Source of the DNA: a virus
Taxonomy: Duplodnaviria > Caudoviricetes
Length of the DNA: 64,000 nucleotides
IMG/VR virus record: IMGVR_UViG_3300028797_000093
Direction: 5' to 3' (one strand)
Part shown: positions 6,520-60,080 of the stretch, in pieces
How the letters are laid out: each line of letters begins with the position of its first letter
How positions within the stretch are numbered: position 1 is the stretch's first letter
Position numbers and translations under genes: made by a program
Notes under the pieces: model-generated
What the model was told of the DNA's origin: nothing
Seen by the model: the letters and a program-made list of their open reading frames with translations, nothing else
The model's database searches: none

Positions 6520-6828
6520 GTTTAAATGATAAGGCGGCGCCATAGATCCAGCCGGTAGCACCAGAGTAGTAGTAGAGATAAACACAGAAAACGCCGCAAG
6601 TGAGCCCAGAGGCAGAATAACCACCACGACGAGCATAATGAGTACCACTACTTTGAGAAAAATAATTATTATTAATTTAAATGATAGGGCGGCGCCATTG
6701 ACCCAGCTGGTATTACCAGAGTAGAAGAGAGTAACACAGAAAGTACCACAAGCAATACTAATGTTCGAGGCACCACCACGAAGAGCATAATGAGTACCAC
6801 TACTTTGAGCAAAATAATCACAATAAAA
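6520..6828 (-). repeat. variable-cassette cluster 1: two orphan DGR-VR-like cassettes (about 6520-6666 and 6676-6828)
   Basis: Minus strand translates to YFSQSSGTHYARRGGYSASGLTCGVFCVYLYYYSGATGWIYGAALSFK and FYCDYFAQSSGTHYALRGGASNISIACGTFCVTLFYSGNTSWVNGAALSFK; no start codon or RBS. Confidence 0.9.
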
Positions 6829-6829
6829 G

Positions 6830-6857
6830 AAGAGATAGGAAATTAATCCTATCTCTT
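6830..6857 (-). terminator. intrinsic terminator after 6865..8070, abutting cassette cluster 1
   Basis: AAGAGATAGGA-loop-TCCTATCTCTT hairpin followed by a T-rich tract on the minus strand. Confidence 0.8.
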
Positions 6858-6864
6858 AATATTT

Positions 6865-8070
6865 TTAATATCTATTAGGAACAATGTCAGGATAGTTTAC
6901 AAAGACTCCATATTGTTTTCCCTTATAGACAGTAGTCTTGAGCAAATCATCTCTTAGATCTTTGTATTTATCCAGTAGCTTACTCCATTTCTTGAAGTCA
7001 TCAGGACTAATCTTTTCTGTATTGATATAATCATCAATAATAGATACTCTAGTATTGATCTTTCTCATCAGATAGATAGCATCGTCTTCTTCTTCTACAT
7101 TTTTACATCTCATAGCAATCTCGAAGTAATCTTCATCAAATTGCTTCATAGTATTATACTTAAATTTATGAAGAGTACCTTCATTTACAGGAATGATTCT
7201 TACATGTTCTAGTCCTCTAATAAGAGATTTCATATAATTCTGCTCAAGAACACTAGCAGATAGATCAATAGCTTTTTTAAGAGTCTTAATAGCCATGATC
7301 TTACGAGTAGATAGACTACTAAGAATTCTTAGAGTCCATAGCATTGTAGCAAACGGATTATCTACATCTTCATGTAGCCTAAAGTTATTCTTAGCAATCT
7401 TAGAGATAAGATTCTCAAGCTGATCATCAAGATCTGCATAATGAATAAACTCATCTGCTGTAAACTTATCTCCACTATTAGTGAATAGAGAACTATGCTT
7501 AGAGATATATTCTGCTACAGCAAAAGCCATAAAGTCAATAGCATCTTTATCCTTAAGATTTGCAATTACCTGATCATTAGCAGCACAGTAAGCATCTACC
7601 TGAACTCTTAGATCATCTACAGGAGCAGAGCTATTTACTACATGACCAACCTCATATAGAATAACTGCCATCATTTCATTAGCAGTCATTCCAACAAGAG
7701 GACTGAACATCTTACTATCAAACTCTACATCTACAGTCTTAATTCTTACAGGTTTTTCTTCGAATAGAATATCATCAAGAAGATATCTATCCATAAACTT
7801 GTGAGAAGGCATAACCTTAACACCAAAGAACATCTTATCAGTATTCTCAGTTACAATGAAATTCTCACAACTACTATCAGGACCAAATGTCATATCTTGA
7901 GTAGTATGATAATCAAATACAGAATTGATAGCATCCTGCATTTCTTTTCTCTCTTTCATAGAGACTTTTCCTTGTTTCTCTACATAGAGAGCACAACTAT
8001 CACGAAGCCTAGAGAAGTCATTAGAGATTCTCTTAGGAATAAATCCGCCTCTCAATTCTTCTTTATCCAT
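6865..8070 (-). CDS. probable virion structural protein
   Basis: 401-aa ORF, AGGAGG RBS, AACA-N6-TA promoter at 8118-8129, close to the capsid gene. Confidence 0.5.
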   Translation of the reverse strand: MDKEELRGGFIPKRISNDFSRLRDSCALYVEKQGKVSMKERKEMQDAINSVFDYHTTQDMTFGPDSSCENFIVTENTDKMFFGVKVMPSHKFMDRYLLDDILFEEKPVRIKTVDVEFDSKMFSPLVGMTANEMMAVILYEVGHVVNSSAPVDDLRVQVDAYCAANDQVIANLKDKDAIDFMAFAVAEYISKHSSLFTNSGDKFTADEFIHYADLDDQLENLISKIAKNNFRLHEDVDNPFATMLWTLRILSSLSTRKIMAIKTLKKAIDLSASVLEQNYMKSLIRGLEHVRIIPVNEGTLHKFKYNTMKQFDEDYFEIAMRCKNVEEEDDAIYLMRKINTRVSIIDDYINTEKISPDDFKKWSKLLDKYKDLRDDLLKTTVYKGKQYGVFVNYPDIVPNRY

Positions 8071-8196
8071 AATATATCTTAATCCTCCTGGAAAAAATAA
8101 TATTTGGGTATTCTATTTAATTAATTGTTGATTCAATTAGATCCTCTTATAAAAAATAGTAGGTGAATCTGAGTAATTCACCTACTATTATATACA

Positions 8197-9381
8197 TTAC
8201 ATAAGTTGATCAAGAAGCTTTACAGTGGAAAATCCACTAGCTCCAGCATGTCCTCCACCACCAAAATCTTTGGCAATGACAGATGCATCATATCCTTGCT
8301 CAAGATACTTCTTATGACAATAGATAGAATACTTCCACACATCTCCATCAAAGTGATAAAGAAGACAGAAAGGATAATCTTCAAACTTATCTCCAAATAC
8401 GAAACTATTACCTCTACCATTTACACACAATACGTCAACCATACCATGTTCTTCATCATAGAAGAACCTTCTTACAAAACTATATTTGGTAGAGATCTCT
8501 TCATTTTGAAGATCAATATATCTCTTAATTATATCACCAGCATCAAGAATATCAAGATATTTACCTTCTCTATTATTATGATAATCTCTCATAAGATCAG
8601 TATAAATACTATTATTAAACATTTCAAGACCATAATGGAATGGAAGAGTATCTACATACTCATGCTTCCAAATATCATAGTCATCAATAAGCTTAATATA
8701 CATAGGAGGTTCTATATCATCATATGTATAATTATAAAATATTCTATTATATTTAGATTTATTATAAGTCTCTGTATATACATCAACTGTTCTTCTAGCA
8801 GCCTCTTCAACAGTATATGTATCTAAAGAGTTTCTGAATAGATTAAAGATCTCTTTGATCCTCTCTTCAGTAATATCTATATCATGTATTGGTTTACCAT
8901 TGTCTCTATTATCAAGAATCAATCCATCCATATAAATAGAAAAGAATCTATTCATATACCATGAAGTCATAGAAGATGAAGTTCCATCTACAAGAATAGG
9001 AATAATCTTATAATGCATATCTTCTACTGGTTGTTTCTTATACCACATAGAAGTTTTATGATGATCAGTCCATACTACAAGTCTAGACTTCTCAGCAATT
9101 TTATATAGAATATCAATAGTATCTTCAGTAAAAGAATAGTCTGTAATAAAGACTATTCTATTCTCAGGAATTTTATCAAATGGAAACTCTAAAGGATAGT
9201 TTAAGTTAAGGAATAGATCAGGATCATCGAGAAACTCGATAGCCATTCTCTTATCACTTTCAATATAATGATTTCCAAGACAATCAATACCAATAACAGC
9301 ATCAAACATATTTACCATAGAAGCATATCCATCAGCATCAATATGACTGATGAAAAATACATCATTTAGTCCAATTCTCAT
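8197..9381 (-). CDS. DHH/DHHA1 phosphoesterase
   Basis: HxDADG, TD, DHH and C-terminal GGGGHAGASGF motifs. Confidence 0.9.
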   Translation of the reverse strand: MRIGLNDVFFISHIDADGYASMVNMFDAVIGIDCLGNHYIESDKRMAIEFLDDPDLFLNLNYPLEFPFDKIPENRIVFITDYSFTEDTIDILYKIAEKSRLVVWTDHHKTSMWYKKQPVEDMHYKIIPILVDGTSSSMTSWYMNRFFSIYMDGLILDNRDNGKPIHDIDITEERIKEIFNLFRNSLDTYTVEEAARRTVDVYTETYNKSKYNRIFYNYTYDDIEPPMYIKLIDDYDIWKHEYVDTLPFHYGLEMFNNSIYTDLMRDYHNNREGKYLDILDAGDIIKRYIDLQNEEISTKYSFVRRFFYDEEHGMVDVLCVNGRGNSFVFGDKFEDYPFCLLYHFDGDVWKYSIYCHKKYLEQGYDASVIAKDFGGGGHAGASGFSTVKLLDQLM

Positions 9382-9506
9382 TAATTTCCCTCCTTTTTAG
9401 TAGTTTACTGTGTAAATAGACACAAAATGCCTTTTAAACGCATTTCATGCAAAAATGGCTTCCCAAGTTAATTCAATTGAATGCTCTCAGGAAGGGGTAT
9501 ATCAAT

Positions 9507-9758
9507 TTATTTATCAGATTTGTATAAAATAATCATCATAATATTTTGAGCTATAACTACTAAAACCATAAGAAAAATAGTTACTAAAAATGGAATTCTT
9601 GGATTAATAATATTAAAAACTGAAAGTAGTCCAAGGGTAAACATAATGAATATATACAATAAGCAAAAGATTAATAATATATTTAAAATAGCTTTATGAG
9701 TTATCTTTTTCTTATTGTTTCTTGAATTCTTCAACATCTTCTTCATTATATAGATCAT
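9507..9758 (-). CDS. small membrane protein
   Basis: Two hydrophobic segments. Confidence 0.45.
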   Translation of the reverse strand: MIYIMKKMLKNSRNNKKKITHKAILNILLIFCLLYIFIMFTLGLLSVFNIINPRIPFLVTIFLMVLVVIAQNIMMIILYKSDK

Positions 9759-10029
9759 ATTTTACATTATCAAAATATTTAGAAATATCTATTTCTTTTT
9801 TGATCTCTTTCTCTAATTTATAACGCTTATGTGAGATATGAATATCATATATTATATAAACAACTGAAGTAACTATAGTCAGGATTCCTATAATAAATCC
9901 TCCTATAGTTTTATTAAAGAATAGTATAATAATTCCTATCCATAGAATAATAATATAAGGATAAAAGAATTTATTCGCTATAAAAGATACTACTTTATCT
10001 ATAAAAGGTTTATACTCTTCATCATTCAA
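9712..10029 (-). CDS. small membrane protein
   Basis: Two hydrophobic segments; AAGGGG RBS. Confidence 0.6.
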   Translation of the reverse strand: MNDEEYKPFIDKVVSFIANKFFYPYIIILWIGIIILFFNKTIGGFIIGILTIVTSVVYIIYDIHISHKRYKLEKEIKKEIDISKYFDNVKYDLYNEEDVEEFKKQ

Positions 10030-10105
10030 TATTAATTATCCCCTTTCGATATAAATCTATTATTATAATATATAATTAAATCTAAAAATAAAAAAGAAGA
10101 GATGA

Positions 10106-10728
10106 TTTAAATGATAGGGCGGCGCCATGAGACCAGTCGGCCGCCCCAGAATTGCGACTGAGAGCAATAAAGAAAACGCCACAAATAGAGCCATTACCAC
10201 AGCCACCATTACGAAAAGCATAACGAGTACCACTATTTTGATAAAAATAATCACAATAAAAACACATAGTTTAAATGATAGGACTGCGCCATAGTTCCAG
10301 CCAGTCCCAGAAGACGAATAGAGTAGAGCAACAGAAGTGAAACCACAATAAAAATCAATAACACAGGAACCACCACGTCTAGCATATGCAATACTCGTAG
10401 CTTTATATATAGATATTTAAGATACTGGTTTAAATGATAGGGCGGCGCCACGATACCAGGAAGTATTAGTAGCAACAACATTTAGAGAAACATAAAAAAC
10501 ACCACATCTAGAACCATCGTTTGAATGACCACTACGAAGACTATAATGAGTACCACTACTTTGATAAAAATAATCACTTATTGGTTTAAATGATAGGGAG
10601 GCGCCACTGAACCAGTAGGTAGAACCAGAGCCGACGTTGAGATAAACATAGAAAGCACCACAAAGGAGCCCAGTGTTCGAGGCACCACCACGAAGAGAAT
10701 AATATGTAGTACTCGTAGCTTTATATAT
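10106..10728 (-). repeat. variable-cassette cluster 2: four orphan DGR-VR-like cassettes
   Basis: Four copies of + strand TTTAAATGATAGG..GCGCC at about 10106, 10269, 10418 and 10582. One ends ...GAALSFKPVS-stop. Confidence 0.9.
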
Positions 10729-10746
10729 AGATAAAAAAATAAAAGA

Positions 10747-10773
10747 GGAGGGTACTCATAAAGAGTACCCTCC
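10747..10773 (-). terminator. capsid-gene terminator abutting cassette cluster 2
   Basis: GGAGGGTACTC-ATAAA-GAGTACCCTCC followed by a T tract on the minus strand. Confidence 0.85.
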
Positions 10774-10820
10774 AAAATAGTGCTTAACTATTACAGTCAA
10801 TCACTCGGCTACAGTGTCAA

Positions 10821-12695
10821 TTATGCCTGATAAGGAGCGTTGGCAGTGTAGTCGTTGTAGTCACTGGTCCCGATGGGATTGGTGTTGGGAACCTCAGACC
10901 GCAGGCCAGTGGGGTTCAGGATCTGGAGACGGCCCTGGACAGGCTGATACTCAACAGTCTTGAACCGCTCGAAGGCATGGATTGCGGGGAGTGCAGGATT
11001 CTTAGCGTTGCGGATTTCGTTGCTGACGTACATCTGGTAATCGTAGATACGATACACGATACGGTCAGTGTTCTTGGGGCAGAGGACAACGATCATGTTG
11101 TTGTTGTCACGGAGCTTGTCGCTGGAGATGAACTGATATACACGATTGTCACTGGAGACAACGGTCTTCTTGAAGTCAAGAGTAGCAGGACCGATGTTGG
11201 CAGGAGTCTCATAGGTGTACTCAGTAGGAGTGATCTTACGGATCAGGTCGGGGCGACCAAAGACGCTGATAGTCATGTTGGGATCGTTCAGTACCTGGAG
11301 CAGGTAGGTCACATGAGTATCAAGAGCGTCCATGAAGGTCTTACGACGCCACTCGACATGGTCGAGAGCATAACCGGCACGAGGAGCGAAGTCGAAGGTG
11401 CTAGCCAGCTTCTGGGTGCTGGGGATATGCATGAAGGACTCGTCAAGGAAAGACTTGATCTTGTCGTCCTTGTAGTTGCCAAGAACGCTCTTAACCAGAG
11501 ACAGGATCTTGGACAGCTGGTTGACCTGATAGAGGGCGGAGATGTCCTTTACCTCTTCAGGGCTGACAGTGGTGTTGATGGGAATAGCTTCGGGGATCTC
11601 CACGATGTCAGTACGAACCTTCCAGCTGACGGAGCAGGTGGGCAGGTTGGCGCTACTGGTGTCGAGACGAGCCTTCAGCTTAACCTTGGTGATAGCACCG
11701 TTGGTGGAAGACAGAACGAAAGCGTTCTTCTTTACGTAACCAGCGATGACATCATCCTTGTGCTGCTCGGCATTGTTGTTATCGAAGTAAGTCAGATGGA
11801 AGCCTTCCATGATCTGACGATCGTACTCGCCGTAAGCAGGAGTGAACTTCATTACTGCAGGATACCAGAGGTCCTTGGAGCCAGCGGTAACAGTGGTGCC
11901 GTCGACATAAGTGCCATCAGGCAGATAGTCACCAACACGATAATACACACCAGGTACATAGACCTCGGAGATGTAGGACTCGATGGAGATGTTGTCACCA
12001 TTGCTGCCACCGATAGCGGTGACACAAACAGGAGTACCATGGCCATCAGGAGTTACAGCAGTGCCACCAACCTTGATGTAGCTGTTGGCATTGGTCTGGT
12101 TGTCAACTTCCTTGATGGGCAGAGTCATCTCGATCTCGGTGAAAGGAGCGGTGCTGTCAATGGCAGCAGTCAGCTTGTACTGCTCCTTGTAGAAGTCGAT
12201 CTCTTCACCAGCTGGAGTAGTCAGGATACGCTGCTCCATGGAAAGAGTGAACTTGGGCTCACGTGCGACAAACTTAGGAATGCCACCATTGTCGAACACG
12301 TTGTTCATCATGATGTTCTTGTGGATGGGAAAGGTCATACCAATGACGGGGTTTACAGCACCAAGAGCTGCATTCTCAAGAATGGCCTCACGGTCATTCA
12401 GATACATCTCTTCTGCATCCTCGCACAGGTCTTCCAGTTCCTCATGAGTGATCAGTCCAGCCTCAACCTCAGGCTGATACAGCTGGGCAACACCCTCTAC
12501 AAAGTAGTTCTTCAGAGCATTGTCAGTACTCTTCAGCATCATAGCCTTGTAGGGCTCGGAGAATACGTCGATTCCAGCTTCATGAAGCATGGACTCGCAC
12601 AGATTCTTATACTCTTCAGCATACTTGCGAATGGGATCCTTGGAATAACCACGGCCCATGTTCGCAGTGCTAGCACGATTACCAACACTAGGCAT
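10821..12695 (-). CDS. major capsid protein (precursor)
   Basis: 624 aa; strongest high-expression codon bias in the window; late promoter; acidic N-terminal region ending ILE like a cleaved propeptide; jumbo-phage structural context. Confidence 0.8.
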   Translation of the reverse strand: MPSVGNRASTANMGRGYSKDPIRKYAEEYKNLCESMLHEAGIDVFSEPYKAMMLKSTDNALKNYFVEGVAQLYQPEVEAGLITHEELEDLCEDAEEMYLNDREAILENAALGAVNPVIGMTFPIHKNIMMNNVFDNGGIPKFVAREPKFTLSMEQRILTTPAGEEIDFYKEQYKLTAAIDSTAPFTEIEMTLPIKEVDNQTNANSYIKVGGTAVTPDGHGTPVCVTAIGGSNGDNISIESYISEVYVPGVYYRVGDYLPDGTYVDGTTVTAGSKDLWYPAVMKFTPAYGEYDRQIMEGFHLTYFDNNNAEQHKDDVIAGYVKKNAFVLSSTNGAITKVKLKARLDTSSANLPTCSVSWKVRTDIVEIPEAIPINTTVSPEEVKDISALYQVNQLSKILSLVKSVLGNYKDDKIKSFLDESFMHIPSTQKLASTFDFAPRAGYALDHVEWRRKTFMDALDTHVTYLLQVLNDPNMTISVFGRPDLIRKITPTEYTYETPANIGPATLDFKKTVVSSDNRVYQFISSDKLRDNNNMIVVLCPKNTDRIVYRIYDYQMYVSNEIRNAKNPALPAIHAFERFKTVEYQPVQGRLQILNPTGLRSEVPNTNPIGTSDYNDYTANAPYQA

Positions 12696-27387: not shown

Positions 27388-29196
27388 TTAGGTAGCTGCG
27401 ATAGCTCCGAGCTGATGCCGTGTAAAAAGCAGTTCATCTGCAGTGGCAGACTCAGCTTCAATCTTAGTTCCACACTTAGGACATGTGCACTCAGGAACCT
27501 GATAGGTAATAATAATATTATCATTATCCATTTTCCTGATATGACCCAATAGAGTAATATATTCATCAGAGGAAAGAGAATTGATGATATTATAACATAC
27601 TCTAATCTTATTGGCAATAGTCTTAGTCTGATCGTTTGCTACAGGCTTAAAGTCTACTGGAATAAGCTCTTCATTTTCTCCATCAATGAAGTAAATCTCA
27701 TCAATGAAAGAATAAATATCAATTAGGTCAGCATACTTCTCCAGGAATTGCTGACTTAGAGATGCAGCCTCAATAACAACAGACCAAATTGTTGGCATAG
27801 TGAGACTTACAGCATAATTATCAGAGATCTGAACTAGATCATTTTCAATCTCGTGATTTCTCGTTGTAGTATCATGCTCAAAGATCTTCTTTACAAGACT
27901 TTCAGCATCATCATTTACATACTTAATCATATCATCAATATTAATATCTGCAATAAAAGTATGTTTACACTTTGGATTAGTGCATTCTCTATTCATAAAG
28001 TTATTTTTTCCAAAGGTAGCTTTATAAATGCAAAAATAATAATGCTCCAGATCATGATATGGAGTGGTCTTAAGCCAAGCTTCAAACTCAGGCTTATTGT
28101 TATCAATAATATGATCATAGATAATTCTATAGATATCTCTGTAAGTATTCAATCTATTTCTATTGCTATTTCTAGGATCAAGTTTAATAATCTCAGTACC
28201 ACTGATAGCACTACAAGAGATAGATCTCCTAGATACAGGAAGTACCCAGTCAGCAATATTAGTCTCTGCCTTAGTAATCTTCATAATAGAACTAATACTG
28301 ACAGGCTTCTTCTTAATCTTAAACCTCTCTAGATCAAATTTCTTAATTGGATTAATATTGTTCTTGATCTGAGTCTTGATCTCATCGACAACTTTCTGTC
28401 TATCTTCTTCAGACATATCCTCAAGATCAGGAGCATCAGGAGTTTCATCTTCATCAGAAGAATATGAATCCCCATCTTCTTCATCTACATCATCTTTAAA
28501 GATATCATCTTCCTCATCGGCAAGATCTTCAAGAATAGTATTTGTACTATTCTTATATTCTTCATATTCATCTTTCTCTTCAACAGGAGCTACAGGTTCC
28601 TGTTTCTTTTCTTCTACAACAGGAGTTTTCTTCTTAGAGCTATGAGCCCTTACAAACTCCTCATCAACATCATCTTCGTTCTCTTCAAGAGAACCTGCTT
28701 CATCATCCTTAAAGAGATCATCAAATTCAGAAGATGTTTGTCCTTCAGGAGCATCAGGTACATTGGAAGCACCATCAACAGGATCTACACCCATTTCAAA
28801 TGCTTCTTCCTGAGCTTCCTCAATAATTCCTTCATGAAGTTCTTGAGTCTGTCTCTTTGTTCTCTCAAGAGCTTCATCCAGCTGATCAAACAGAGCATTC
28901 TCCATTGTAGGACCCTGGAGATCTTCATCCTTAGCAGCAAATACTTTAGGATTAATAGGATTCAGGTCAGCAAGACTGATAGCTTTCTGACTTGGAACTG
29001 ACTGAGTGACAGGTACAAAAGTCTTAAACTCATTAGCTGCCTTTTCAGCAGCTTCTTCTACTTTCTTCTCAAGATCCAGCTTAGGAATATCTTCTACGTT
29101 ATCATATACTGGTGATCTACGAACACCTCTATATTCCTTAGCTGCTTTTTCAGTTCTATTGTCCGATTCTGGTGGTGTAATTTTCTTTGTTGCCAT
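27388..29196 (-). CDS. baseplate hub/tail assembly protein (T4 gp26-like) with acidic N-terminal extension
   Basis: C....C and C-terminal CPKCG zinc motifs; next to a gp25-like gene. Confidence 0.55.
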   Translation of the reverse strand: MATKKITPPESDNRTEKAAKEYRGVRRSPVYDNVEDIPKLDLEKKVEEAAEKAANEFKTFVPVTQSVPSQKAISLADLNPINPKVFAAKDEDLQGPTMENALFDQLDEALERTKRQTQELHEGIIEEAQEEAFEMGVDPVDGASNVPDAPEGQTSSEFDDLFKDDEAGSLEENEDDVDEEFVRAHSSKKKTPVVEEKKQEPVAPVEEKDEYEEYKNSTNTILEDLADEEDDIFKDDVDEEDGDSYSSDEDETPDAPDLEDMSEEDRQKVVDEIKTQIKNNINPIKKFDLERFKIKKKPVSISSIMKITKAETNIADWVLPVSRRSISCSAISGTEIIKLDPRNSNRNRLNTYRDIYRIIYDHIIDNNKPEFEAWLKTTPYHDLEHYYFCIYKATFGKNNFMNRECTNPKCKHTFIADINIDDMIKYVNDDAESLVKKIFEHDTTTRNHEIENDLVQISDNYAVSLTMPTIWSVVIEAASLSQQFLEKYADLIDIYSFIDEIYFIDGENEELIPVDFKPVANDQTKTIANKIRVCYNIINSLSSDEYITLLGHIRKMDNDNIIITYQVPECTCPKCGTKIEAESATADELLFTRHQLGAIAAT

Positions 29197-29203
29197 ATCC
29201 TTG

Positions 29204-29590
29204 TTATCCTCCCATGATTTCGTTTAGAGATCTATAGTCTGTATTAATTCTAAAAGCTTCATCTACAGAAATCATATATACAGTCTTATTGAAAGTAGCT
29301 GTGATATAATACATTCTTTGAAACTCTCTTACATTAATAACTATACCAGTCAATACTGGTATATACTTAGTAATCTGATTTTGGAAATCTCTCTGCAGTT
29401 CATCTGCATGTCCCAAAAAACTATATCTATATTTAGATACAATACCAACACCCATTTCAGGATGTGTATCAAAAGTATTAGGTTCTAACAGTAGTAATTG
29501 AACCAATAATTTACAAACTGCATCAGGACCTGATTTAACCTCAGGTTCCAGAAAAGTGTTTACAGATAATGTATATTCATTTAGAGCCAA
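29204..29590 (-). CDS. baseplate wedge gp25/GPW-like protein
   Basis: 128 aa with LLL.EP.T...HPEMGVGI motif. Confidence 0.6.
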   Translation of the reverse strand: MALNEYTLSVNTFLEPEVKSGPDAVCKLLVQLLLLEPNTFDTHPEMGVGIVSKYRYSFLGHADELQRDFQNQITKYIPVLTGIVINVREFQRMYYITATFNKTVYMISVDEAFRINTDYRSLNEIMGG

Positions 29591-29729
29591 TTGAATATCA
29601 ACTCCTCTCTTCTAATTATATTACCAAATTGTTTAGTGAATTAAAAAATTATAAGAGATAAAAATAATATATGAAATTAGTATTAGATTATATATCATAA
29701 GATAGAAATTTAATAATGGAGGAAACGTA

Positions 29730-30575
29730 ATGAATGATTTAACTGATAATATTAAACAGACATACGTTTGTACAGAATGTAATCATAGTGTATCTTTTAA
29801 TATCAGTAATAGTTTAAATATAACTGATGAGAATGGCAATGATATTGATCCTAAATATAAAATTGATATTCTTAAAGACTATATTCGTAATGATATTATT
29901 AGTGGAAAATATGTAGATGTATTTTGCCCCAAATGTGGATATTCTATGAAGCCTATTAGATCTAAGTTTATTACTATATATAAAGCTTTTAATAGAAAAG
30001 GATATAATGTAGATACAGATCCGAGTTCTGATACTGTATATTGGTATAACTATAAAGAAAATAAACGGGTTGAAGTTAAAGCAAATATTGTAATTTTCAA
30101 TATTCATGATATTCTATATGATATTTTCTATAGACTATTTTATCTTCCATCATTTGAAAATAATAAAAAGAAGCTTACAGAAGAGAATTTTAAATTCTTA
30201 TATGATGATATTGCCAATGGTTTTTGTAAACCCTTTAAACAAGATCCTAAACATAAAGTAAAATATGATGATCTTATAGAAGGATATATTGAAACGATAT
30301 TAGATATTATGATTGATCACCTACTCAATCATCCTATTAGATTCTTTGAATTGCTTAACTTTAAAGAAGAAGAAGAGTTTAATAATCAGCTCACCCCATA
30401 TAATTATCAACCTCGCATAGAAGAAGATATTATTACTGTAACTTGTGAAACTAATAAAACTCTTCTAGAATTGTGTAAGAAACTTCCTAATCTGAGAGAC
30501 ATAAATGAAGTAGTTGATCTATTCAGGAAGTGGATTCCTATGTATGAAGAAGACTTTAGAAAAGATTATTTCTAA
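29730..30575 (+). CDS. zinc-ribbon protein
   Basis: CTEC...CPKC...NRKGY; similar to 37035..37901. Confidence 0.65.
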   Translation: MNDLTDNIKQTYVCTECNHSVSFNISNSLNITDENGNDIDPKYKIDILKDYIRNDIISGKYVDVFCPKCGYSMKPIRSKFITIYKAFNRKGYNVDTDPSSDTVYWYNYKENKRVEVKANIVIFNIHDILYDIFYRLFYLPSFENNKKKLTEENFKFLYDDIANGFCKPFKQDPKHKVKYDDLIEGYIETILDIMIDHLLNHPIRFFELLNFKEEEEFNNQLTPYNYQPRIEEDIITVTCETNKTLLELCKKLPNLRDINEVVDLFRKWIPMYEEDFRKDYF

Positions 30576-30634
30576 TAATAAAAATAAAGGAGTAACCTAT
30601 TATGGTTACCCCTTTATTTTTTCTATATTAAATT

Positions 30635-31024
30635 TTATTTCTTTCTACTGTGGAATAGTCTTCTTAGAAAACTCAGTATATTATTTCTAATATATCTGAT
30701 TTTCTTATCGCTAAAGAATAGTTGTGAATACTTTTCATTTTCTATGTATATGGATACTGTAGAAGGAGAATGGTCAATTACATTAGACACATTGTTGAGA
30801 TTGAATGAAGTTATATGACACATATCTGTATAGTTATTTTTATCACATTCACAAACTATATATAGAGTACGTATCATATAATATTGAAATACTCCATTTT
30901 TGGTCCTTTTATATATCCTCTTAAAAAAGAAATTATCACCATCTGATTTTATCTCATATACATAGTTCATTGAAGATATTCTATTAAGAATATCATTAAT
31001 TTCTTCCCTGGTATAAGTCTTCAA
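30635..31024 (-). CDS. hypothetical protein
   Basis: ORF only. Confidence 0.45.
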   Translation of the reverse strand: MKTYTREEINDILNRISSMNYVYEIKSDGDNFFFKRIYKRTKNGVFQYYMIRTLYIVCECDKNNYTDMCHITSFNLNNVSNVIDHSPSTVSIYIENEKYSQLFFSDKKIRYIRNNILSFLRRLFHSRKK

Positions 31025-31148
31025 TATGTATATTAAACCACCTTTCTCTTACTACTTATACAGAAATAAGCGATTTGGTGAGTTTATCTATTGCTATTAT
31101 GTTATAAAAAAGAAAGTAATAGACGTTAATCTATTACTTTCTATAATA

Positions 31149-31625
31149 TTACCAAGACATCTTAAATATCATTCCATCCTGCCAAGCTTCAATGAAAGTA
31201 TTAAAGGCTTCTACTCCTTTAAACTTATCATCAAAGTATCTGGCTTGAGGATATTTATCTTTAAAATCAATATATTTCTTCATAGCATTTATCATACCCT
31301 TCTTTGTAGTACAAATACATGTAGTGGGTTTCTTATGATAAAAGAATTTATTAGTAAAGAACCATCCTTGTCTATATCGTACTATATCACAAGCAATATA
31401 TTGCATCTTTCCAAATTCATCATCATATAATGTATTCCAATCTAATTTATCAAGAAGCTTCTTATATCTATGATAAGACTTATACCCCTTAAACATACGA
31501 AGCTCATCACTTTTTATGAGAAATGAACTTTCATTAAGACTCATTATTTCCCAATTAAACAGAGCATCAAAAGAACTAAAGAGTTTATCATACTTAGGTT
31601 TTAAAAGAACCATGTAAGCACTCAT
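31149..31625 (-). CDS. hypothetical protein, paralog of 31632..32096
   Basis: Shared C-terminal T.K..M......Y...W..GM.F.M. Confidence 0.65.
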   Translation of the reverse strand: MSAYMVLLKPKYDKLFSSFDALFNWEIMSLNESSFLIKSDELRMFKGYKSYHRYKKLLDKLDWNTLYDDEFGKMQYIACDIVRYRQGWFFTNKFFYHKKPTTCICTTKKGMINAMKKYIDFKDKYPQARYFDDKFKGVEAFNTFIEAWQDGMIFKMSW

Positions 31626-31631
31626 GTTAAT

Positions 31632-54058: not shown

Positions 54059-55015
54059 ATGCTGACTCTAATGTTTAATATAAGACAAATAGAGAATGCA
54101 GATGATATATTTAAGTTTTATATAGATAAAGTTAGAACTATATTCAATTATTTTAATGGAAGAATCAATAGAATAAATAGTAATGTGCAACTAGTCATAG
54201 ATTATTATGACTATATAAATAGAAACTATGGATGTTTTATATCTCCTAATATAGTATATATTTATATTGGAGAAATAATAGAAGGATCTTATAGATTCTT
54301 TAACTATATGAATCATGATGCTATAGTTACAGAGATTATAATATCATGTATACATGAGTTAGTACATGCAGAGCAAGCATTGGATAATTCTATGTATAAG
54401 AAAGATACTACATATAAAACTCAATTAGAATTACATGCAGAGTTGGTATCTTTTGATTATATAATAAGAAATCAAAAAGAGTTGGAGTATCTATTCTCTT
54501 TTAACGTAAACTTTGGTATAGATAATATACCTGGAATGATACTACAGAATATAAACTATAACACATACACTTCTGTATTTAATAATAGTGATACTCTCAA
54601 TAAATTTGCTTCCATAGAAGATATGTATATGCAAATTTTCAAAAATGAGGGTTTTATGCAAAATTCTGAGGTTTCCTGGCTACTTACACAGGAAAGTGTA
54701 GATAACGTCGTTTTTGCAATTTTTGACTCTCTGAGAGTATTCAATTTAATGCACTCAGGAAGCCATAATTCAAAAAATTTACCATATGATGAAAAACATA
54801 TGGTAATTATTAAGAGAAATAGATTATGGAGCACAGATGGGTTTCCTAAATTTGTAGATATGATTAATAGACAAATTATACAATATAAACCACTTAAATA
54901 TAGAATATCAATTGAAGTATTAAATAGATATGATGAGTTTAAACAATTTAAAAGTTATGGATATATTATATTAAACATAGATAAAGAAAATAGATATATA
55001 AATCCAATAAGATAA
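54059..55015 (+). CDS. HExxH metallopeptidase-like protein
   Basis: CIHELVHAEQ followed by downstream E..AE. Confidence 0.6.
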   Translation: MLTLMFNIRQIENADDIFKFYIDKVRTIFNYFNGRINRINSNVQLVIDYYDYINRNYGCFISPNIVYIYIGEIIEGSYRFFNYMNHDAIVTEIIISCIHELVHAEQALDNSMYKKDTTYKTQLELHAELVSFDYIIRNQKELEYLFSFNVNFGIDNIPGMILQNINYNTYTSVFNNSDTLNKFASIEDMYMQIFKNEGFMQNSEVSWLLTQESVDNVVFAIFDSLRVFNLMHSGSHNSKNLPYDEKHMVIIKRNRLWSTDGFPKFVDMINRQIIQYKPLKYRISIEVLNRYDEFKQFKSYGYIILNIDKENRYINPIR

Positions 55016-55042
55016 AGGATTGGACCAATATCCAATCCTTTA
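55013..55042 (+). terminator. terminator of 54059..55015, bounding cluster 4 on its other side
   Basis: TAAAGGATTGGA-loop-TCCAATCCTTTA plus poly-T. Confidence 0.8.
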
Positions 55043-55050
55043 TTTTTTTT

Positions 55051-55998
55051 GTTTAAATGATAGGGTGGCGCCAAAACTCCAGTCGGTACTACTAGCAGAA
55101 TATGATAAACTAATATAGAAAGCACCACAATAGAGACCACGATTCGAGCGACTACCACGATAAGTATAATGAGCACCATTACTTTGAGCAAAATAATCAC
55201 AATAAAAAGAAGAGGCTTAAATGATAGAGCAGCACCAAGGCTCCAATCTGGACTAGAAGCAGAAAGCATACCACTAACAAAGAAAACACCACAATAGAGT
55301 CCACGACCTGATGCACCACCACGATAGGAATAGTGTGTACCACCACTTTGATAAAAATAATCACAATAATAGCTACCACTAATTTAAATGATAGGGTAGC
55401 ACCAAGGTACCAGTAAATACCAGAAAACAAATAGTTCAGAGCAACAAAGAAAGCACCACAATAAAGACCAGAGTACGAATAACAACCACGATAAGCATAA
55501 TGTGAACCACTACTTTGATAAAAATAATACTATGGTTTAAATGATATGGCAGCGCCAATATACCAGCGATTACGACCAGAATAGTCGTTTAAACTAGCAG
55601 AGAAAACACCACAGCGTAAACCATCGTCGCATTTATCTCCATGAATAGCATAATGATCACTTGAACTTTGATAAAAATAATCACAATAAAAAGACTGGTT
55701 TAAATGATAGGGCGGCGCCATAGACCCAGTAGGTATAACCAGAGCCGTAGTAGAGATTAACAAAGAAAGCACCACAATAGAGGCCATAGCTCGAGGCACC
55801 ACCACGAAGAGAATATACAGTACTCGTAGCTTTATACATGGTTTAAATGATAGGGCGGCGCCAACTCCCCAGTGGGCAAAGCTATCAGAAGACGAGCCAG
55901 AAACAGAGAAAACCCCACAAGCAAAGCCATAACTACAGAGACCACCACGAACAGCATAATGAGTGCTACTACTTTGAGAAAAATAATCACAATAAAAA
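55051..55998 (-). repeat. variable-cassette cluster 4: six orphan DGR-VR-like cassettes
   Basis: Copies begin on the + strand at about 55051, 55214, 55383, 55533, 55693 and 55839; all translate stop-free to ...CG.F...W..GA(A/T)(L/I)SFK. Confidence 0.9.
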
Positions 55999-56030
55999 AT
56001 ATGGAGAGGTAACTTAATACCTCTCCATAT
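55999..56030 (-). terminator. terminator after the HU-like gene, abutting cluster 4
   Basis: ATATGGAGAGGTA-loop-TACCTCTCCATAT. Confidence 0.85.
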
Positions 56031-56033
56031 ATT

Positions 56034-56564
56034 TTACTTCTTGTACATGGGGCATCCACTCTGTACCTTAATAGTATCATGAGCAGGAACAGTAGTGGGA
56101 ACCTTGGAGTAACGAGGAGTTCCGTCCTCATTTACACCAACCTTACGAGGATAGCTCTTTGTAGTCTCAGGAACTTCCTTACGAATGAAGGATACATCAG
56201 AATGTTCGCGGCATCCAAGAGGAAGCTTACGATTAGTCTGCATATAGGTGAGAATAAATTCCTTACCAATACGAACCATAGCATCAGATTCGATCTTGGA
56301 AGCATCTCTTTTCTGAATCAGCTTGATAGCTTCATCAGTACTGATATGGGTAGTATCAGTTACGATCTCTACACACATATTCTTATAGTCTTCAGCAGGA
56401 CAATATTCTCCTTCGAGACCATCCTTACCAAAAACACCAACCTTATAGCTCGTATCATTGAGCATAGCTTTCATAACACGAGACTCGTCTTTCTTAGAGG
56501 AACCCTTCTGAGTTAGATTCTTCTGGATATCCTCAATACAAGCCTTTACAGTTTCGTTTGCCAT
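56034..56564 (-). CDS. HU/IHF-like DNA-binding protein
   Basis: C-terminal beta-arm-like RKLPLG...F.RKEVP.....P......G.......VPAH..IKV; high-expression codons. Confidence 0.5.
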   Translation of the reverse strand: MANETVKACIEDIQKNLTQKGSSKKDESRVMKAMLNDTSYKVGVFGKDGLEGEYCPAEDYKNMCVEIVTDTTHISTDEAIKLIQKRDASKIESDAMVRIGKEFILTYMQTNRKLPLGCREHSDVSFIRKEVPETTKSYPRKVGVNEDGTPRYSKVPTTVPAHDTIKVQSGCPMYKK

Positions 56565-56590
56565 TGTGGTAAAACCTCCTAAAAATCTTT

Positions 56591-56764
56591 TTAATTAATA
56601 ATTACGGGTACTAGTGGATCAATCAATTTTCTTTCTTTTCCTTTTTCTAGAATTAACTGATTGATTTCTTCTGGGGTCATTGAAGCTAAGAGAGTAAGAA
56701 AATTATCTTTTCTAATTTCTTTCTCTTTCTTCTCCTCTTCTGTTAATTCTTTTTTAGATGGCAT
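56591..56764 (-). CDS. small protein absent from the ORF track (57 aa)
   Basis: GGAGG RBS then MPSKKELTEEEKKEKEIRKDNFLTLLASMTPEEINQLI... Confidence 0.55.
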   Translation of the reverse strand: MPSKKELTEEEKKEKEIRKDNFLTLLASMTPEEINQLILEKGKERKLIDPLVPVIIN

Positions 56765-56812
56765 TCTATACCTCCATCTTTTTATTTAATTAGTTTAGTT
56801 TGTATTATTTTA

Positions 56813-57151
56813 TTATATTGAGGAATATGTTAGAAAATCTTTAGGATAAAGGAATTGAAGTTCTGATAATGCTACAGAAGAGTTATACTTCTCATTTACA
56901 GCAGATATCATATCTTCTATTTTCTCTTTATCTTTAATTAGTATATAAATTTCTTGATACTTATCAGCTAGATTGATCTTAGAAGCTGTATAGGTACTAT
57001 TCATAAATATACTGATGACTGAAGCAAAAGCAACTTTAGCAACTATAAAGTCTCTCTCTTCAGTAATATTTTTTATATCTTCTACTTTCTTTTTAAATTC
57101 ATACTCTAATCTTTGTCTCATTATTTCAGGGTTTTGTGGTTTCTTTCCCAT
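56813..57151 (-). CDS. hypothetical protein
   Basis: ORF with AAAGGG RBS. Confidence 0.55.
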   Translation of the reverse strand: MGKKPQNPEIMRQRLEYEFKKKVEDIKNITEERDFIVAKVAFASVISIFMNSTYTASKINLADKYQEIYILIKDKEKIEDMISAVNEKYNSSVALSELQFLYPKDFLTYSSI

Positions 57152-57302
57152 ATATCATTAACCCTTTCTATATTTTTATAGTATTTAATCCTAATTCTAT
57201 TTAAATAGGAACTATTAGTATGTATTGCCTGTTTTAAAAGGTTATTTTAGATCATATTAACAAAATAATAAATTGAAATATAGCCCAATTGGAGGTTTAT
57301 AT

Positions 57303-59837
57303 ATGAAAACAATAGAGGATCTAAAGCCATTACGGATGTATTCTCCAAAAACTAAACTATATGCTCCTACAAATGTAATGAATAAAAGAAAAGGAGCTGC
57401 AATATTACTATTAACTCGTAGTACTGATGAATCAGAAATGATAATGAATCTTCCATATATCTATAACCCAAATCTATTTGTATCTTACTATATCAGCAAG
57501 AATGTAAATGCTTACATTAAGTCTAATAATATAGAAGTAGATACGAATGATATTGATGATGATACTAGTCTGAGTACAAAAGAAATGGATGAGCTGATGA
57601 ATGAAGCTACAATCTTTTCAAGACTAGGAAACAGATATCCTAATATTAAATATGATAATGAATCTTGTTCCACATATGATATAGCTTTCTTCAAAGATGC
57701 TTTGTCTAAGGATTTTATTACTGAATGTATGGAGAAACTTCAGTATAATAATCTATCTGGTACTATCACAGTATTTGCTCATAAAGATCCTGATGATTTT
57801 ATCAGTAAAACCAGTGATGCAAATCCTTACAGTTATTATACTTCTAATCAACTCCATATGCTCTCCAAATCTTCTTGGGAAGCTAATTGTAGTGATAAGA
57901 GCTATACTGATTATATAAGAACAGTATTTGTATCATATATGATCAAGAGAATGAGTCCTAAGATCAATTTCTTCTTAGCTCATCTATATGCTTCTTATAT
58001 TATAAAAAATCCAAATAATAATGTAGTAGAATATACTAATATTTTCAATGGTCTAGATAAACTGGTAGCAGAATTTGGTTTCTCTACTATCTTGGCCAGT
58101 ATTTACAAGTACACCATTGATCCTGTATATAAATTTCTTAATACTAATACAGTAAACTATATTAAGAGTTCTATCAAGACATCTACATCTGTATTATCAG
58201 AGATTACTCTTAATGATGCTATTCAATCACATGGATATTACTATGATGAGAGATGGAATAGTATCATTGAATATAATGGTGATCTATATAGAGAAAGAGT
58301 AGAATGTCTTGTAATAGATAAAGAAGACAAATCTGTCTTTCTTTATTTTAAGAAAGATGGATCATACAATATTCCTGGTGGATCTACAGAAAAAGATAAA
58401 GAAAATGAAGATCAAGTGGCTGCTGAATGTAAAGAAGAAGCTAGAATCTCTATTAAGAATATTAAGAGTACAGAATTGGTTTATCTGGTTAAATATGATA
58501 GTTCTCCAGATTGGATGAAGTTATACCCAATTAAATGGTCTGGAGCAATTAATAGAGTATATACTGCAGATTATGATAAACCATATACTGGTATTATAGA
58601 TGATATAGATAAAGATAATGATATGTATAGGTTTGGTAAGTTCTATAAGATAGAGGATGTATATAAATTTCTATCTCCTATACATAAGGTTGCTATTATG
58701 AATTATCTAAAAACTAATAAGATGAAGATTAGATTAGCTCTTAATACAACCAAAAGTTCAGTAAATGAATCTGGAGATAGATATGAAAAATTAAATCAAT
58801 CCAACTATAATGAAGCTGTTTTAACAGAGAATGGTTATCTTGTAGAAGATGATTATTTTATCTATAATAATATCAATGATGAAAGTATAATTTCTTTCTT
58901 TAACAAACCAGAATATATCACTGAAGCTATTAAAATCAATAAGAAGTTTGATGATACTGTTTTAAGAAAATATCTATATAAAGAACGTATCAGAACTAAT
59001 AGAGAACTAACAGCTATGTATGCTGATATTAAAGCTAGAAACCCATGGATAAAAAGAACTTATCCATATATCAATAGATACATGGGATTTAATATCTATA
59101 TAGATTTTTCATATTATCATTCTGTATTCTTAAAGAATAATATGATCAAAAATGATAAGGGTGTAGGAGTTTATTGGGATATTATTAATAGACTTCTAGA
59201 TACAGAAGAAATTAATAAGAACTATAATAAACAGACTATTATAATTCCTGTGAATGCTAACTCATGGAATGTAAGCAATCCTGAGGATCTATTTAACTTT
59301 AGAGTTAGTATCAATCCAATATCTACTATAGTAAGACTACTAAGAAGTAATCCTATGGAACTTCATAAATGGGATAATAAGAAAATCCTCTTTGTAAGTA
59401 ATAAAGGATTCTTTACACTAGATTTTGGCACTTTCTCTATGGCTAATATAAATAGGTTTAAGAAGTTCATTAGAATGCTGATGAATTTTGAACCTATTGT
59501 ATATGAAGATGACGATGAAGATATTAATGTAGATACTAAAGCTGTAACTATCAATAAAGCTCTAGATAATATTGAGAAGTCTACTGGTGTACAACTCAGT
59601 AATTCCAGTGAACCTCAAATAAATAAAGATATAGTAAATATCAAAAGTGATATAGTATCAGGTTCTGCTATTAGAGTTATGACTCTTACTAAAGCTAAAG
59701 TAGTGCTTCCTATAGTTAATGGAGTTAAGAATCTAGTATATTACCTTACTCCTAGTCAGGATACTACCATTAAGAGTCTAAATAAAGAAGATAATATCTC
59801 TAATAAAAAAGAAATTAAGAATATTACAGTAATCTAA
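57303..59837 (+). CDS. large protein with an internal Nudix hydrolase domain (probably virion-associated)
   Basis: Nudix-box variant PGGSTEKDKENEDQVAAECKEEARI; GGAGG before ATG 57303; AACA-N6-TA at 57259-57270. Confidence 0.7.
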   Translation: MKTIEDLKPLRMYSPKTKLYAPTNVMNKRKGAAILLLTRSTDESEMIMNLPYIYNPNLFVSYYISKNVNAYIKSNNIEVDTNDIDDDTSLSTKEMDELMNEATIFSRLGNRYPNIKYDNESCSTYDIAFFKDALSKDFITECMEKLQYNNLSGTITVFAHKDPDDFISKTSDANPYSYYTSNQLHMLSKSSWEANCSDKSYTDYIRTVFVSYMIKRMSPKINFFLAHLYASYIIKNPNNNVVEYTNIFNGLDKLVAEFGFSTILASIYKYTIDPVYKFLNTNTVNYIKSSIKTSTSVLSEITLNDAIQSHGYYYDERWNSIIEYNGDLYRERVECLVIDKEDKSVFLYFKKDGSYNIPGGSTEKDKENEDQVAAECKEEARISIKNIKSTELVYLVKYDSSPDWMKLYPIKWSGAINRVYTADYDKPYTGIIDDIDKDNDMYRFGKFYKIEDVYKFLSPIHKVAIMNYLKTNKMKIRLALNTTKSSVNESGDRYEKLNQSNYNEAVLTENGYLVEDDYFIYNNINDESIISFFNKPEYITEAIKINKKFDDTVLRKYLYKERIRTNRELTAMYADIKARNPWIKRTYPYINRYMGFNIYIDFSYYHSVFLKNNMIKNDKGVGVYWDIINRLLDTEEINKNYNKQTIIIPVNANSWNVSNPEDLFNFRVSINPISTIVRLLRSNPMELHKWDNKKILFVSNKGFFTLDFGTFSMANINRFKKFIRMLMNFEPIVYEDDDEDINVDTKAVTINKALDNIEKSTGVQLSNSSEPQINKDIVNIKSDIVSGSAIRVMTLTKAKVVLPIVNGVKNLVYYLTPSQDTTIKSLNKEDNISNKKEIKNITVI

Positions 59838-59885
59838 AAAAAATAAATAGTAGAAGGGTAAATATCCTTCTACTATTTTTTATAT

Positions 59886-60034
59886 GATACTGGTTTAAAT
59901 GATAGGGCGGCGCCACGATGCCATACAAGCCCAGAAGCAGCAAAGTTCAGAAAAACAAAGAAAGCACCACAAACGAGCCCATTGTTCGAGGTACCACCAC
60001 GAATAGCATATGCAGTACTCGTAGCTTTATATAT
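59886..60034 (-). repeat. variable-cassette cluster 5: single orphan DGR-VR-like cassette between two hairpins
   Basis: YKATSTAYAIRGGTSNNGLVCGAFFVFLNFAASGLVWHRGAALSFKPVS; hairpins at 59845-59878 and 60043-60080. Confidence 0.9.
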
Positions 60035-60042
60035 GGGATAAA

Positions 60043-60080
60043 AAATAAAAGGTAAGCATATTACAGCTTACCTTTTATTT
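60043..60080 (-). terminator. terminator abutting cassette 16
   Basis: AAATAAAAGGTAAGC-loop-GCTTACCTTTTATTT. Confidence 0.85.

Follow-up and report, generated by a model that had tools for sequence, protein, structure and literature searches.

Silent tail-tip cassettes directly behind predicted intrinsic terminators in a rumen phage genome, and their possible origin by recombination into T tracts

How do short, coding-like repeats come to stand directly behind transcription terminators in a phage genome? The question was raised by a 64,000-nucleotide stretch of DNA (the window; IMG/VR record IMGVR_UViG_3300028797_000093, Caudoviricetes). The phage has been described as a giant rumen phage.

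Searches of the window with nhmmer and with anchor sequences gave a total of exactly 16 minus-strand cassettes, grouped into five arrays (2, 4, 3, 6 and 1 units). Array 1 (6521..6829) has two type-A cassettes, the second of which is truncated at its 5' end. Array 2 (10106..10732) has four cassettes with heads B, A (truncated), B and A; array 3 (32622..33060) has three type-B cassettes, which are preceded by a remnant, TAAAGC...AAATC; array 4 (55052..55998) has six, with heads A, B, A, A (truncated), A1 and A; and array 5 (59894..60039) is a single type-B cassette. Heads come in three gene-specific types, of which A1 and A2 each match a different working gene of the related contig L007. The type-A head is T-rich (TCT TTT TAT TGT, that is, TTCTTTTTATTGTGA), whereas type-B heads have no T-run. 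The conserved frame is open across a core of about 40 codons in all units. An in-frame ATG is found in only one of them (55681-55839), where it is made by the linker and lacks a Shine-Dalgarno sequence. The 3' ends are ragged (TTTAAA plus 0 to 12 nt of CCAGTATCTTAA), as an earlier note on this DNA had described, and among about 70 units they never overrun the stop codon, which lies 12 nt after TTTAAA. Scans of the window detected neither a tRNA nor an Rfam family at its gathering score, so the cassettes do not represent RNA genes.

Each cassette repeats, without a promoter, the last ~45 codons of a phage tail protein, the tip that a diversity-generating retroelement (DGR) would diversify. L007 has full-length tail genes, members of phrog_5302 (E = 4e-50), and they share their arms with units that have neither start codon nor promoter, which is the arrangement of a silent-cassette archive. 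Sequence searches of the working tail gene against Pfam and PDB gave nothing useful. In a DGR variable region, variation falls at adenine-templated positions, that is, in NNY codons with a fixed third base. We found this signature at codons 4, 11, 14, 21, 28 and 33, for example, where the entropy at positions 1-2 was 1.2-1.9 bits and the third position was T in 12-16 of the 16 units. One silent unit (L002:933) is 97.5% identical to the variable region of a working gene (L007:3072).

The stem-loop of DGRs lies 3' of the variable region, is GC-rich and has a 4-nt loop (PMC3240598); we looked for one at 4-34 bp past the IMH. After all three working variable regions of L007, a GC-rich 7-bp stem with a 4-nt loop is located 28 nt downstream. 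Neither the window nor any silent array has a stem-loop of this type, so that the silent cassettes do not qualify as canonical DGR targets.

Each array begins behind a hairpin. We examined these hairpins by a consensus scan, by folding energies and on the gene map, looking for a hairpin just past the end of a same-strand gene. All five have the GC-containing hairpin and T tract of predicted intrinsic (factor-independent) terminators, with energies of -15.9 to -25.6 kcal/mol and z of -3.8 to -8.8; their stems and loops (5-8 nt) are mutually unrelated. Array 1 follows the predicted terminator of gene 6865-8070 (6830..6857, minus strand; -15.9 kcal/mol, z -3.8), which takes its T tract from the first cassette head (CTTTTATTGTGA). 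Array 2 follows that of the major head gene 10821-12695 (10747..10773, minus strand; -22.3 kcal/mol), with a T tract of 14 nt (10733-10746). The hairpin before array 3 (33071..33097, minus strand; -21.3 kcal/mol, z -8.8) is a predicted bidirectional terminator that closes a region with few ORFs; the unit upstream of it is the closest minus-strand ORF (33152-33259, 35 aa) or non-coding DNA. Array 4 follows the predicted terminator of gene 56034-56564 (55999..56030, minus strand; -25.6 kcal/mol), for which its first head is the T tract (TTTTTATTGTGA). The predicted terminator of gene 60084-61061 before array 5 (60043..60080, minus strand; -18.8 kcal/mol, z -6.9) was listed by the scan on the plus strand only; read on the minus strand, it has a 9-bp core stem (AAGGTAAGC/GCTTACCTT) and then a T tract (TTATTTTTTAT). 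The other four were listed on the minus strand (6857-6830, 10773-10747, 33097-33071 and 56030-55999).

The distance from stem end to cassette head is 0 nt in arrays 1 and 4, 14 nt in array 2, 10-19 nt in array 3 and about 4-11 nt in array 5. Two details of the earlier note were confirmed here: the T tract merges with the cassette start in two clusters (arrays 1 and 4; TTTTATTGTGA), and clusters 4 and 5 are closed by a second hairpin. These closing hairpins are the predicted terminators of convergent genes, 54059-55015 for array 4 (55009..55046, plus strand) and 57273-59837 for array 5 (59845..59878, plus strand). Wherever a type-A head forms the left border (window arrays 1 and 4; L002, L003, L008/L010/L011 and L015), it abuts the stem directly or after 6-7 T-rich nt, and type-B heads begin exactly at the end of a 9-14-nt T tract. 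T-rich fillers in five internal linkers resemble these terminator-first junctions.

Is this placement non-random? A random intergenic position and orientation falls at most 25 nt behind a strong same-strand terminator with p = 0.07, so that five arrays out of five gives P = 1.7e-6. Because 24 of the 45 gaps of at least 40 nt carry a terminator, the choice of gap alone gives P = 0.035. Array position is thus strongly non-random relative to random intergenic placement, and weakly so at the level of gap choice. The arrays are also co-oriented with the terminated upstream gene in 4/4 informative tandem-gene contexts, which supports the orientation-specific, non-random placement claimed before. The claim that every cluster directly follows a terminator stood for the window (5/5, at 0-19 nt) and did not extend to the relatives. 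Four further independent arrays in related rumen contigs have the terminator-first layout, and a gene-end terminator came first in only 9 of the 12 independent arrays with a readable 5' flank. The three exceptions are L001 and L012, where the array continues from the variable region of a working, full-length tail gene, and L006, which has no hairpin. L001, L012 and L014 are short metagenome contigs and may be chimeric.

Behind the major head gene, 33 distant relatives have a stop codon, a hairpin and a T tract with no cassette, and in most of them the ribosome-binding site of the next gene lies within ~100 nt of the T tract. The cassette peptide is absent from the five closest IMG/VR relatives, whose head protein is 53-59% identical; as empty sites, they count only in a distant sense. 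No relatives were found by IMG/VR searches with two flanking proteins and the cassette 3' anchor or by a GTDB genome scan with the head protein, and megablast against phage GenBank gave no match.

The placement could be caused by selection only. Cassette DNA would then land anywhere by unspecific recombination, and the copies in the neutral bases between terminator and promoter, with the T-run kept, would survive; terminator adjacency would say nothing about the insertion mechanism. The arrays do occupy the stretch from the terminator tail to the next promoter-like TATATATTATA motif or convergent terminator, which agrees with the earlier suggestion of selection for silent sites. Array-free gaps with a terminator are 64-213 nt long (mostly ~100-130 nt), with the hairpin at the very gene end and the promoter-like TATATATTATA only ~25 nt past it, so the neutral space is tiny. 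The barely significant gap choice also favors this explanation, as does the finding that type-B heads, which lack a T-run, always follow a T tract that is complete, as expected from a functional filter. However, co-orientation in the tandem contexts is left unexplained, because an antisense array would be equally silent.

The right borders bear on the same issue. That of array 2 (10074..10105, minus strand) consists of an inter-unit linker and the beginning (11-12 nt) of another type-A head (TTCTTTTTTATT), downstream of which lies the promoter-like region of gene 9712-10029; over a 15-nt prefix, this border matches an internal linker of L010. Such stubs of linker and next head measure 15 nt in array 2, 17 nt in L003 and 11 nt in L006, against a mean of 4 and a maximum of 9 at 145 other TTTAAA sites. 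On the right side of array 1, the left-border hexamer CTTTTA is repeated before the upstream region of gene 6126-6494. The right flank of array 3 starts with CCA plus TTTTTATT, and that of array 5, CCAGTATC plus ATATAAA, looks like the stub of a type-B head. T-runs are found on both sides of arrays 1-3 (CTTTTA; TCTTTTATTTTT; TTATTTTT). The right sides of arrays 2 and 3 have 40 nt in common (10060-10099 and 32584-32623); rather than being part of a mobile unit, this stretch more likely contains a promoter-like TATATATTATA motif, which is also present behind cassette-free terminators at ~180 and 25299. Degenerate cassette remnants and solo heads were looked for at the window's other terminators, and none were found.

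Eleven idiosyncratic linker types each occur in two to four arrays, with three of the pairings involving orthologous or mosaic contigs (L005 array 1, L014). The same array is found in L010 and L012 with a breakpoint exactly at TTCTTTTTATTGTGA, upstream of which L010 runs into the gene-end terminator common to L008, and L012 into the tail-gene body common to L007. At 22 nt, the shared run is in our judgement too short for an assembly chimera, assuming the usual large k. Taken together, the T-run borders, the TTCTTTTTATTGTGA breakpoint, the next-unit stubs and the recurring odd linkers suggest that segments of existing arrays were copied into terminator tails at the DNA level. T-tract microhomology, one of the mechanisms proposed in the earlier note, is supported by left borders within or at the end of T tracts, by right borders in truncated T-rich heads and by the L010/L012 breakpoint. 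Selection only would leave both the right borders in head T-runs and the breakpoint exactly at a T-run unexplained, and we regard it as possible and well short of probable.

We then compared the arrays between strains. Array 1 is 100% identical in L005, and array 3 is identical in L009; at the array 3 site of L004, a relative with 80% identity, there is one unit. Higher conservation of cassettes than of flanks was rejected, because the identical arrays lie within larger zero-mismatch mosaic blocks. Array 2 has 4 units, and its 95%-identical ortholog in L005 has 7 (1 versus 4 internal units), with none at least 85% identical and both end junctions kept. In L014, the distal three units are kept, and this contig is a mosaic with another locus. 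Ordered, polar growth of the arrays had been suggested, and it finds no support in array 2, which differs from L005 in every cassette between its two conserved junctions.

From the observed anatomy, borders, breakpoints, linker reuse and turnover, we infer a recombination route and a role for selection: the arrays may have been founded by DNA-level recombination into terminator T tracts and then filtered by selection (probability about 0.5). The donor would be a segment of an existing array, or a working gene with its trailing array. At the DNA level, it would enter the T tract of an intrinsic terminator through short homology between the T-rich head and the terminator tails, here typically TTTTTATT, and the exit junction would be made likewise in the head of the next donor unit. 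Terminator adjacency would most likely arise because the T-rich cassette start can take the place of the signal's T-rich tail by recombining with it. The route might be repair of a break or a template switch at the hairpin, or an excised circle might enter by a single crossover. Selection would retain insertions in which the hairpin, the T-run and the downstream promoter are intact, so that survivors would be co-oriented in the untranscribed stretch between terminator and promoter. After founding, the terminator junction would be stable, and recombination among arrays and working genes would keep changing the number and content of units.

The pre-insertion sequence in this proposal is a reconstruction. 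Several points argue against the proposal. T-rich matches are cheap in DNA with 70% A+T, and the promoter-side T-run may be functional rather than a duplicated target. Arrays that begin with type B (2, 3 and 5) have little head-to-tail microhomology at the left border, and the head stubs at right borders could equally stem from deletions of longer arrays.

Reverse transcription offers another route. A DGR RT copying variable-region or template RNA would switch onto the U-tail of a terminated transcript, and the chimeric cDNA (gene end, hairpin, U tract, cassette) would recombine into the genome, with repeats adding units on the terminator side. Intrinsically terminated RNAs end just behind the hairpin stem, and the junctions lie there too, 0-14 nt past it. 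The array orientation is as predicted, and the 3' ends that never pass the stop codon and the T-rich fillers in five internal linkers also fit. Group IIC introns, which carry an RT, insert after terminators as well (PMC4424553; PMC3240598). However, the stubs of linker and next head exist only in array DNA, so that they, like the reuse of odd linkers, need array DNA as the donor. The three gene-specific head types are incompatible with one template, no polar growth was seen between strains, and the window's 10 largest ORFs include neither an RT nor a template repeat. RT template switching had been put forward as the source of each unit; linker reuse in unrelated arrays and the linker and next-head stubs speak against it, and we consider this route unlikely. 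It is quite improbable, too, that the terminators are leaders of a retro-archive, in which RT switching onto U-tails would deposit freshly diversified tips beside the hairpins. If that were true, past receptor-binding tips would be recorded in each array in order of time, and the T-rich fillers would be fossil terminator tails of earlier additions.

Hairpin recognition, as raised in the earlier note, would have a structure-specific nuclease or DGR target recognition acting on terminator cruciforms, and it is very improbable: a stable hairpin stands at 9/12 independent arrays and arrays 4 and 5 are flanked on both sides, but the closing hairpins simply belong to convergent genes, the terminators lie 5' of the arrays with unrelated stems and 5-8-nt loops, and the DGR stem-loop, which is 3', GC-rich and has a 4-nt loop (PMC3240598), follows the working genes of L007 and does not occur in the window.

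The preferred reading, recombination into T tracts followed by selection, can be set beside known systems. In Neisseria pilE/pilS and Borrelia vlsE/vls, as in the present phage, the variable end of a surface protein is repeated in partial copies that lack a promoter; these stand in tandem, one to several per array, with conserved arms around a variable core. Unlike those systems, the arrays here are in a phage genome, have DGR-type NNY codons in their cores and are scattered behind the terminators of unrelated genes; we know of no terminator rule for pilS or vls.

DGR targets such as mtd of Bordetella phage BPP-1 (PMC3240598, PMC12875486) are similar in their C-terminal tip, variable at codon positions 1-2, in a GC-rich constant 3' end that resembles the IMH (the constant GC-rich 3' border of the variable region), and in the GC-rich stem-loop downstream of the variable region in working genes. 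However, the silent cassettes lack stem-loop, gene body and start codons, and the array-side hairpin is on the 5' side, as a predicted transcription terminator.

Insertion after intrinsic terminators is also described for group IIC introns (Robart et al. 2007, cited in PMC4424553). They too are repeated elements right behind terminator hairpins, co-oriented with the terminated gene, with silence and avoidance of coding sequence as proposed benefits. In contrast, the cassettes have no ribozyme and no intron-encoded protein (Rfam was empty in the window), they are ~150-nt protein-coding fragments, and their junctions point to DNA recombination. CRISPR arrays share tandem units beside a fixed flanking element and a length that varies between strains, but the present arrays have no constant repeats between unique spacers, and instead of leader-proximal ordered addition they undergo whole-array or internal turnover between strains.

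The siting of this archive suggests that the arrays occupy the one part of a compact phage genome where transcription is probably absent. The first codons of a cassette double as the T tract of the terminator, and arrays are joined to terminators or to working genes with this T-run as the breakpoint. This provides a testable rule for the spread of the archive within a genome and for its discovery in other phages, where coding-like repeats fused to terminator tails can be searched for. It also calls for caution, because ragged ends and linkers mimic the scars of retro-insertion, and here they are inherited and copied between arrays. A silent library of DGR-diversified tail tips would add a second layer to the host-range variation of phages.

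We detected 16 cassettes of about 150 nt in the window by repeat, anchor and profile searches. All are on the minus strand, in five arrays of 2 (6521..6829), 4 (10106..10732), 3 (32622..33060), 6 (55052..55998) and 1 (59894..60039) units, here arrays 1–5. With the reading frame set by the constant …GAALSFK terminus, every one of the 16 is open over a core of about 40 codons. The translation is the module head-AxRGG..G..CGxF…W..GAALSFK, with two types of head, A (FYCDYFxQSSGTHY) and B (IYKATSTAY). A start codon is absent from nearly all units, and the single 52-aa ORF (55681-55839, array 4) takes its ATG from a linker. Variation falls mostly at codon positions 1 and 2, while the third base is constant, T or a pyrimidine. 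Ordinary coding divergence shows the opposite pattern, whereas adenine-directed mutagenesis by a diversity-generating retroelement (DGR) is expected to leave this mark.

The related rumen contig L007 carries three tandem full-length genes (529–530 aa), each with such a module at its end, which match phrog_5302, annotated as a tail protein (E = 4e-50). Downstream of the module they carry CCAGTATCC, the stop codon TAA and a GC-rich stem-loop (loop of 4 nt), which occurs nowhere in the window. One silent cassette is near-identical to a working variable region. Because the units are open modules mostly lacking a start codon, vary in the DGR manner and share the module that ends the L007 genes, they are, judging from sequence comparison, silent copies of a tail-protein tip. 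The L007 trio itself (2941-6612, spacing about 1.77 kb) is paralogous; each gene terminates in the variable module, an identical 12-nt tail and two GC-rich hairpins (TTCGCGC-ACAT-GCGCGAA, then GGGGGAA…TTCCCCC), and the three look like several DGR targets in series. A second cassette class ends in GGTGCTGCT instead of GGCGCCGCC and was found at 5612-6406 of contig L005 and among units of L010, L012 and L001. Its cores are A-rich, with plentiful AAT and AAC codons, and it may be nearer to the unmutated template state or come from a different target gene.

The earlier note observed that every cluster begins within about 0–25 nt of a minus-strand terminator hairpin, and took this as a sign of targeted insertion or of selection for silent storage sites. 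Our terminator scan found minus-strand hairpins for four of the five arrays. For the fifth (array 5) the scan gave solely a plus-strand hit, since A-T pairs prolong the stem into its own tail; read on the minus strand, this hairpin has a 9-bp core stem and then a T tract. Good folds were obtained for all five, and the noted spacing holds, with stem-to-head distances of 0 nt (arrays 1 and 4), 14 nt (array 2), 10–19 nt (array 3) and about 4–11 nt (array 5). Each hairpin lies a few bases past the stop of a minus-strand gene, except at array 3, whose hairpin follows either an ORF of 35 aa or non-coding DNA. Three further details were confirmed: in arrays 1 and 4 the sole T tract of the terminator is the T-run of the cassette head; arrays 4 and 5 are closed by hairpins, which are the terminators of convergent plus-strand genes; and the ragged 3' ends of cassettes extend beyond TTTAAA by 0 to 12 nt of CCAGTATCTTAA.

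The scan lists three to six times as many terminator-like sites as shuffled sequence yields. Because they occupy 24 of the 45 gaps of at least 40 nt, the presence of all five arrays in terminator-bearing gaps is weakly significant (P = 0.035). A same-strand terminator within 25 nt upstream has p = 0.07 per event, and five out of five gives P = 1.7e-6 under a null that takes no account of selection. Gaps free of cassettes are short (64–213 nt, mostly about 100–130 nt); in them the gene end is marked by a hairpin, with a promoter-like TATATATTATA motif about 25 nt further on. Adjacency to terminators might reflect surviving positions only. Such pure selection accounts for array position, but it leaves orientation and breakpoints unexplained, and we regard it as possible though rather improbable.

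The window has a low GC content of about 30% and carries genes for a split multisubunit RNA polymerase, for the major head protein (minus strand, 10821-12695) and for a tail sheath, so its source looks like a jumbo phage. GC reaches 0.46 at 10001-12000, compared with about 0.29 elsewhere; this segment overlaps the major head gene and possibly reflects codon usage linked to high expression, or foreign origin. Next to array 3, 2.6 kb (33100-35740) hold no ORF above 75 aa. In this region lie a 36-nt tandem repeat (33655-33776), a bidirectional hairpin (35428-35454) and scattered TGAATCTTT words; its role could be in regulation or replication, or it could be a small RNA gene cluster.

Searches of IMG/VR gave no close relative, and the cassette peptide was absent from the five closest records. 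In 33 IMG/VR jumbo phages with a head protein 44–59% identical, the equivalent site holds a stop, a terminator hairpin and a T tract, mostly with the ribosome-binding site of the next gene within about 100 nt, and no cassette. With the constant 3' end as query, a single scan of JGI metagenomes retrieved 15 rumen contigs (L001–L015), of which several key ones are short assemblies. Array 3 is the same in L009 (98% identity to the window), and in L004 (about 80%) the site holds one unit, bordered by the hairpin and right flank known from the window. L005 and L013 (about 95%) carry array 1 unchanged. Their array 2 has 7 units against 4 in the window, none at least 85% identical to any window unit, and both end junctions are kept despite the changed contents. 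Arrays unchanged between strains fall inside larger zero-mismatch blocks. Ordered, CRISPR-like growth was not seen in the single informative strain pair. Divergence of window 4494-10277 from L005 and of 27656-33959 from L009 is mosaic, with zero-difference blocks of 0.8–3 kb alternating with blocks of 5–10% divergence, a sequence pattern that indicates frequent recombination between co-circulating strains.

A same-strand hairpin also stands at the start of non-orthologous arrays in L002, L003, the L008/L010/L011 locus and the second array of L015; a same-strand ORF ends 6–10 nt upstream of it in all of these except L015. The rule that every cluster lies behind a terminator, true of all five arrays in the window, fails in three related contigs: in L001 and L012 the first unit forms the end of a tail-gene body, and the L006 array, which lacks a hairpin, begins some 90 nt away from the start of a divergent gene. 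The roughly 190 nt between the two L015 arrays (850-1045, minus strand) start at a promoter-like AATTATATATAATA, end at a hairpin terminator and hold no open frame longer than 38 aa. This stretch is a candidate for a small RNA unit, and its terminator tail is where the second array begins. L014 (1-1505) has an 8-unit array. Its distal three units are those of array 2, and its terminator and proximal units are those of the L008/L011 locus; this reflects either recombination between arrays or a chimeric assembly at a common anchor of 24 nt.

At the left border, the head TTCTTTTTATTGTGA of a type-A first unit is flush with the stem in arrays 1 and 4, L002, L003 and L015, and follows 6–7 T-rich bases in L008, L010, L011 and L014. 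A type-B head, which has no T-run, begins at the end of a 9–14-nt T tract. At its right border, array 2 ends in a linker also found inside other arrays, the first 11–12 nt of an extra type-A head and then unique sequence; L003 and L006 end likewise. Prefix matches to internal linkers are 15 (array 2), 17 (L003) and 11 nt (L006), against a mean of 4 and a maximum of 9 at 145 other TTTAAA sites in the window. The sequence after array 1 is CTTTTA and that after array 3 is TTTTTATT, each a repeat of the run at the left border of its array; after array 5 comes ATATAAA, with which a type-B head begins. L010 and L012 have the same array and diverge exactly at the first base of TTCTTTTTATTGTGA, upstream of which lies a terminator in L010 and a tail-gene body in L012. 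Eleven idiosyncratic linker types (for example CCAATAA+GTGATT, CTATGTG+TTTTTATT and CCAGT+CTTTTTATT) each recur in two to four arrays with differing cores; three of the pairings come from orthologous or mosaic contigs (L005 array 1, L014). A near-identical 40-nt stretch (TTTTTATTTTTAGATTTAATT…TATAT) follows the last units of arrays 2 and 3 (10060-10099 and 32584-32623). It lies upstream of apparently unrelated genes and is either a common promoter class or sequence carried with arrays.

Template switching by a reverse transcriptase at the ends of terminated RNAs agrees with array position and with the sharp 3' limit of units, and has a precedent in group IIC introns. However, it is unable to yield stubs of linker and next head or reused linkers, and one template cannot give three gene-specific head types, so that we consider it unlikely. 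Direction of cassettes by hairpin recognition is more doubtful still, since the array-side hairpins are mutually unrelated and lie 5' of the arrays, unlike the DGR stem-loop, which has a defined form and lies 3' of the variable region.

The explanation that we favour, with a probability of about 0.5 on these sequence comparisons, is that array segments would be copied at the DNA level into terminator tails, with the T-run common to cassette heads and terminator tails as the joining sequence, although microhomology is readily over-interpreted in AT-rich DNA. Selection would then act on the products, in which terminator and promoter must stay intact, and unit content would later turn over through recombination. 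This model would explain the exact position of arrays, their co-orientation with the upstream gene (four of four informative tandem contexts), the T-runs that flank arrays, the head stubs at right borders and a terminator junction that stays stable as the contents of the array change.
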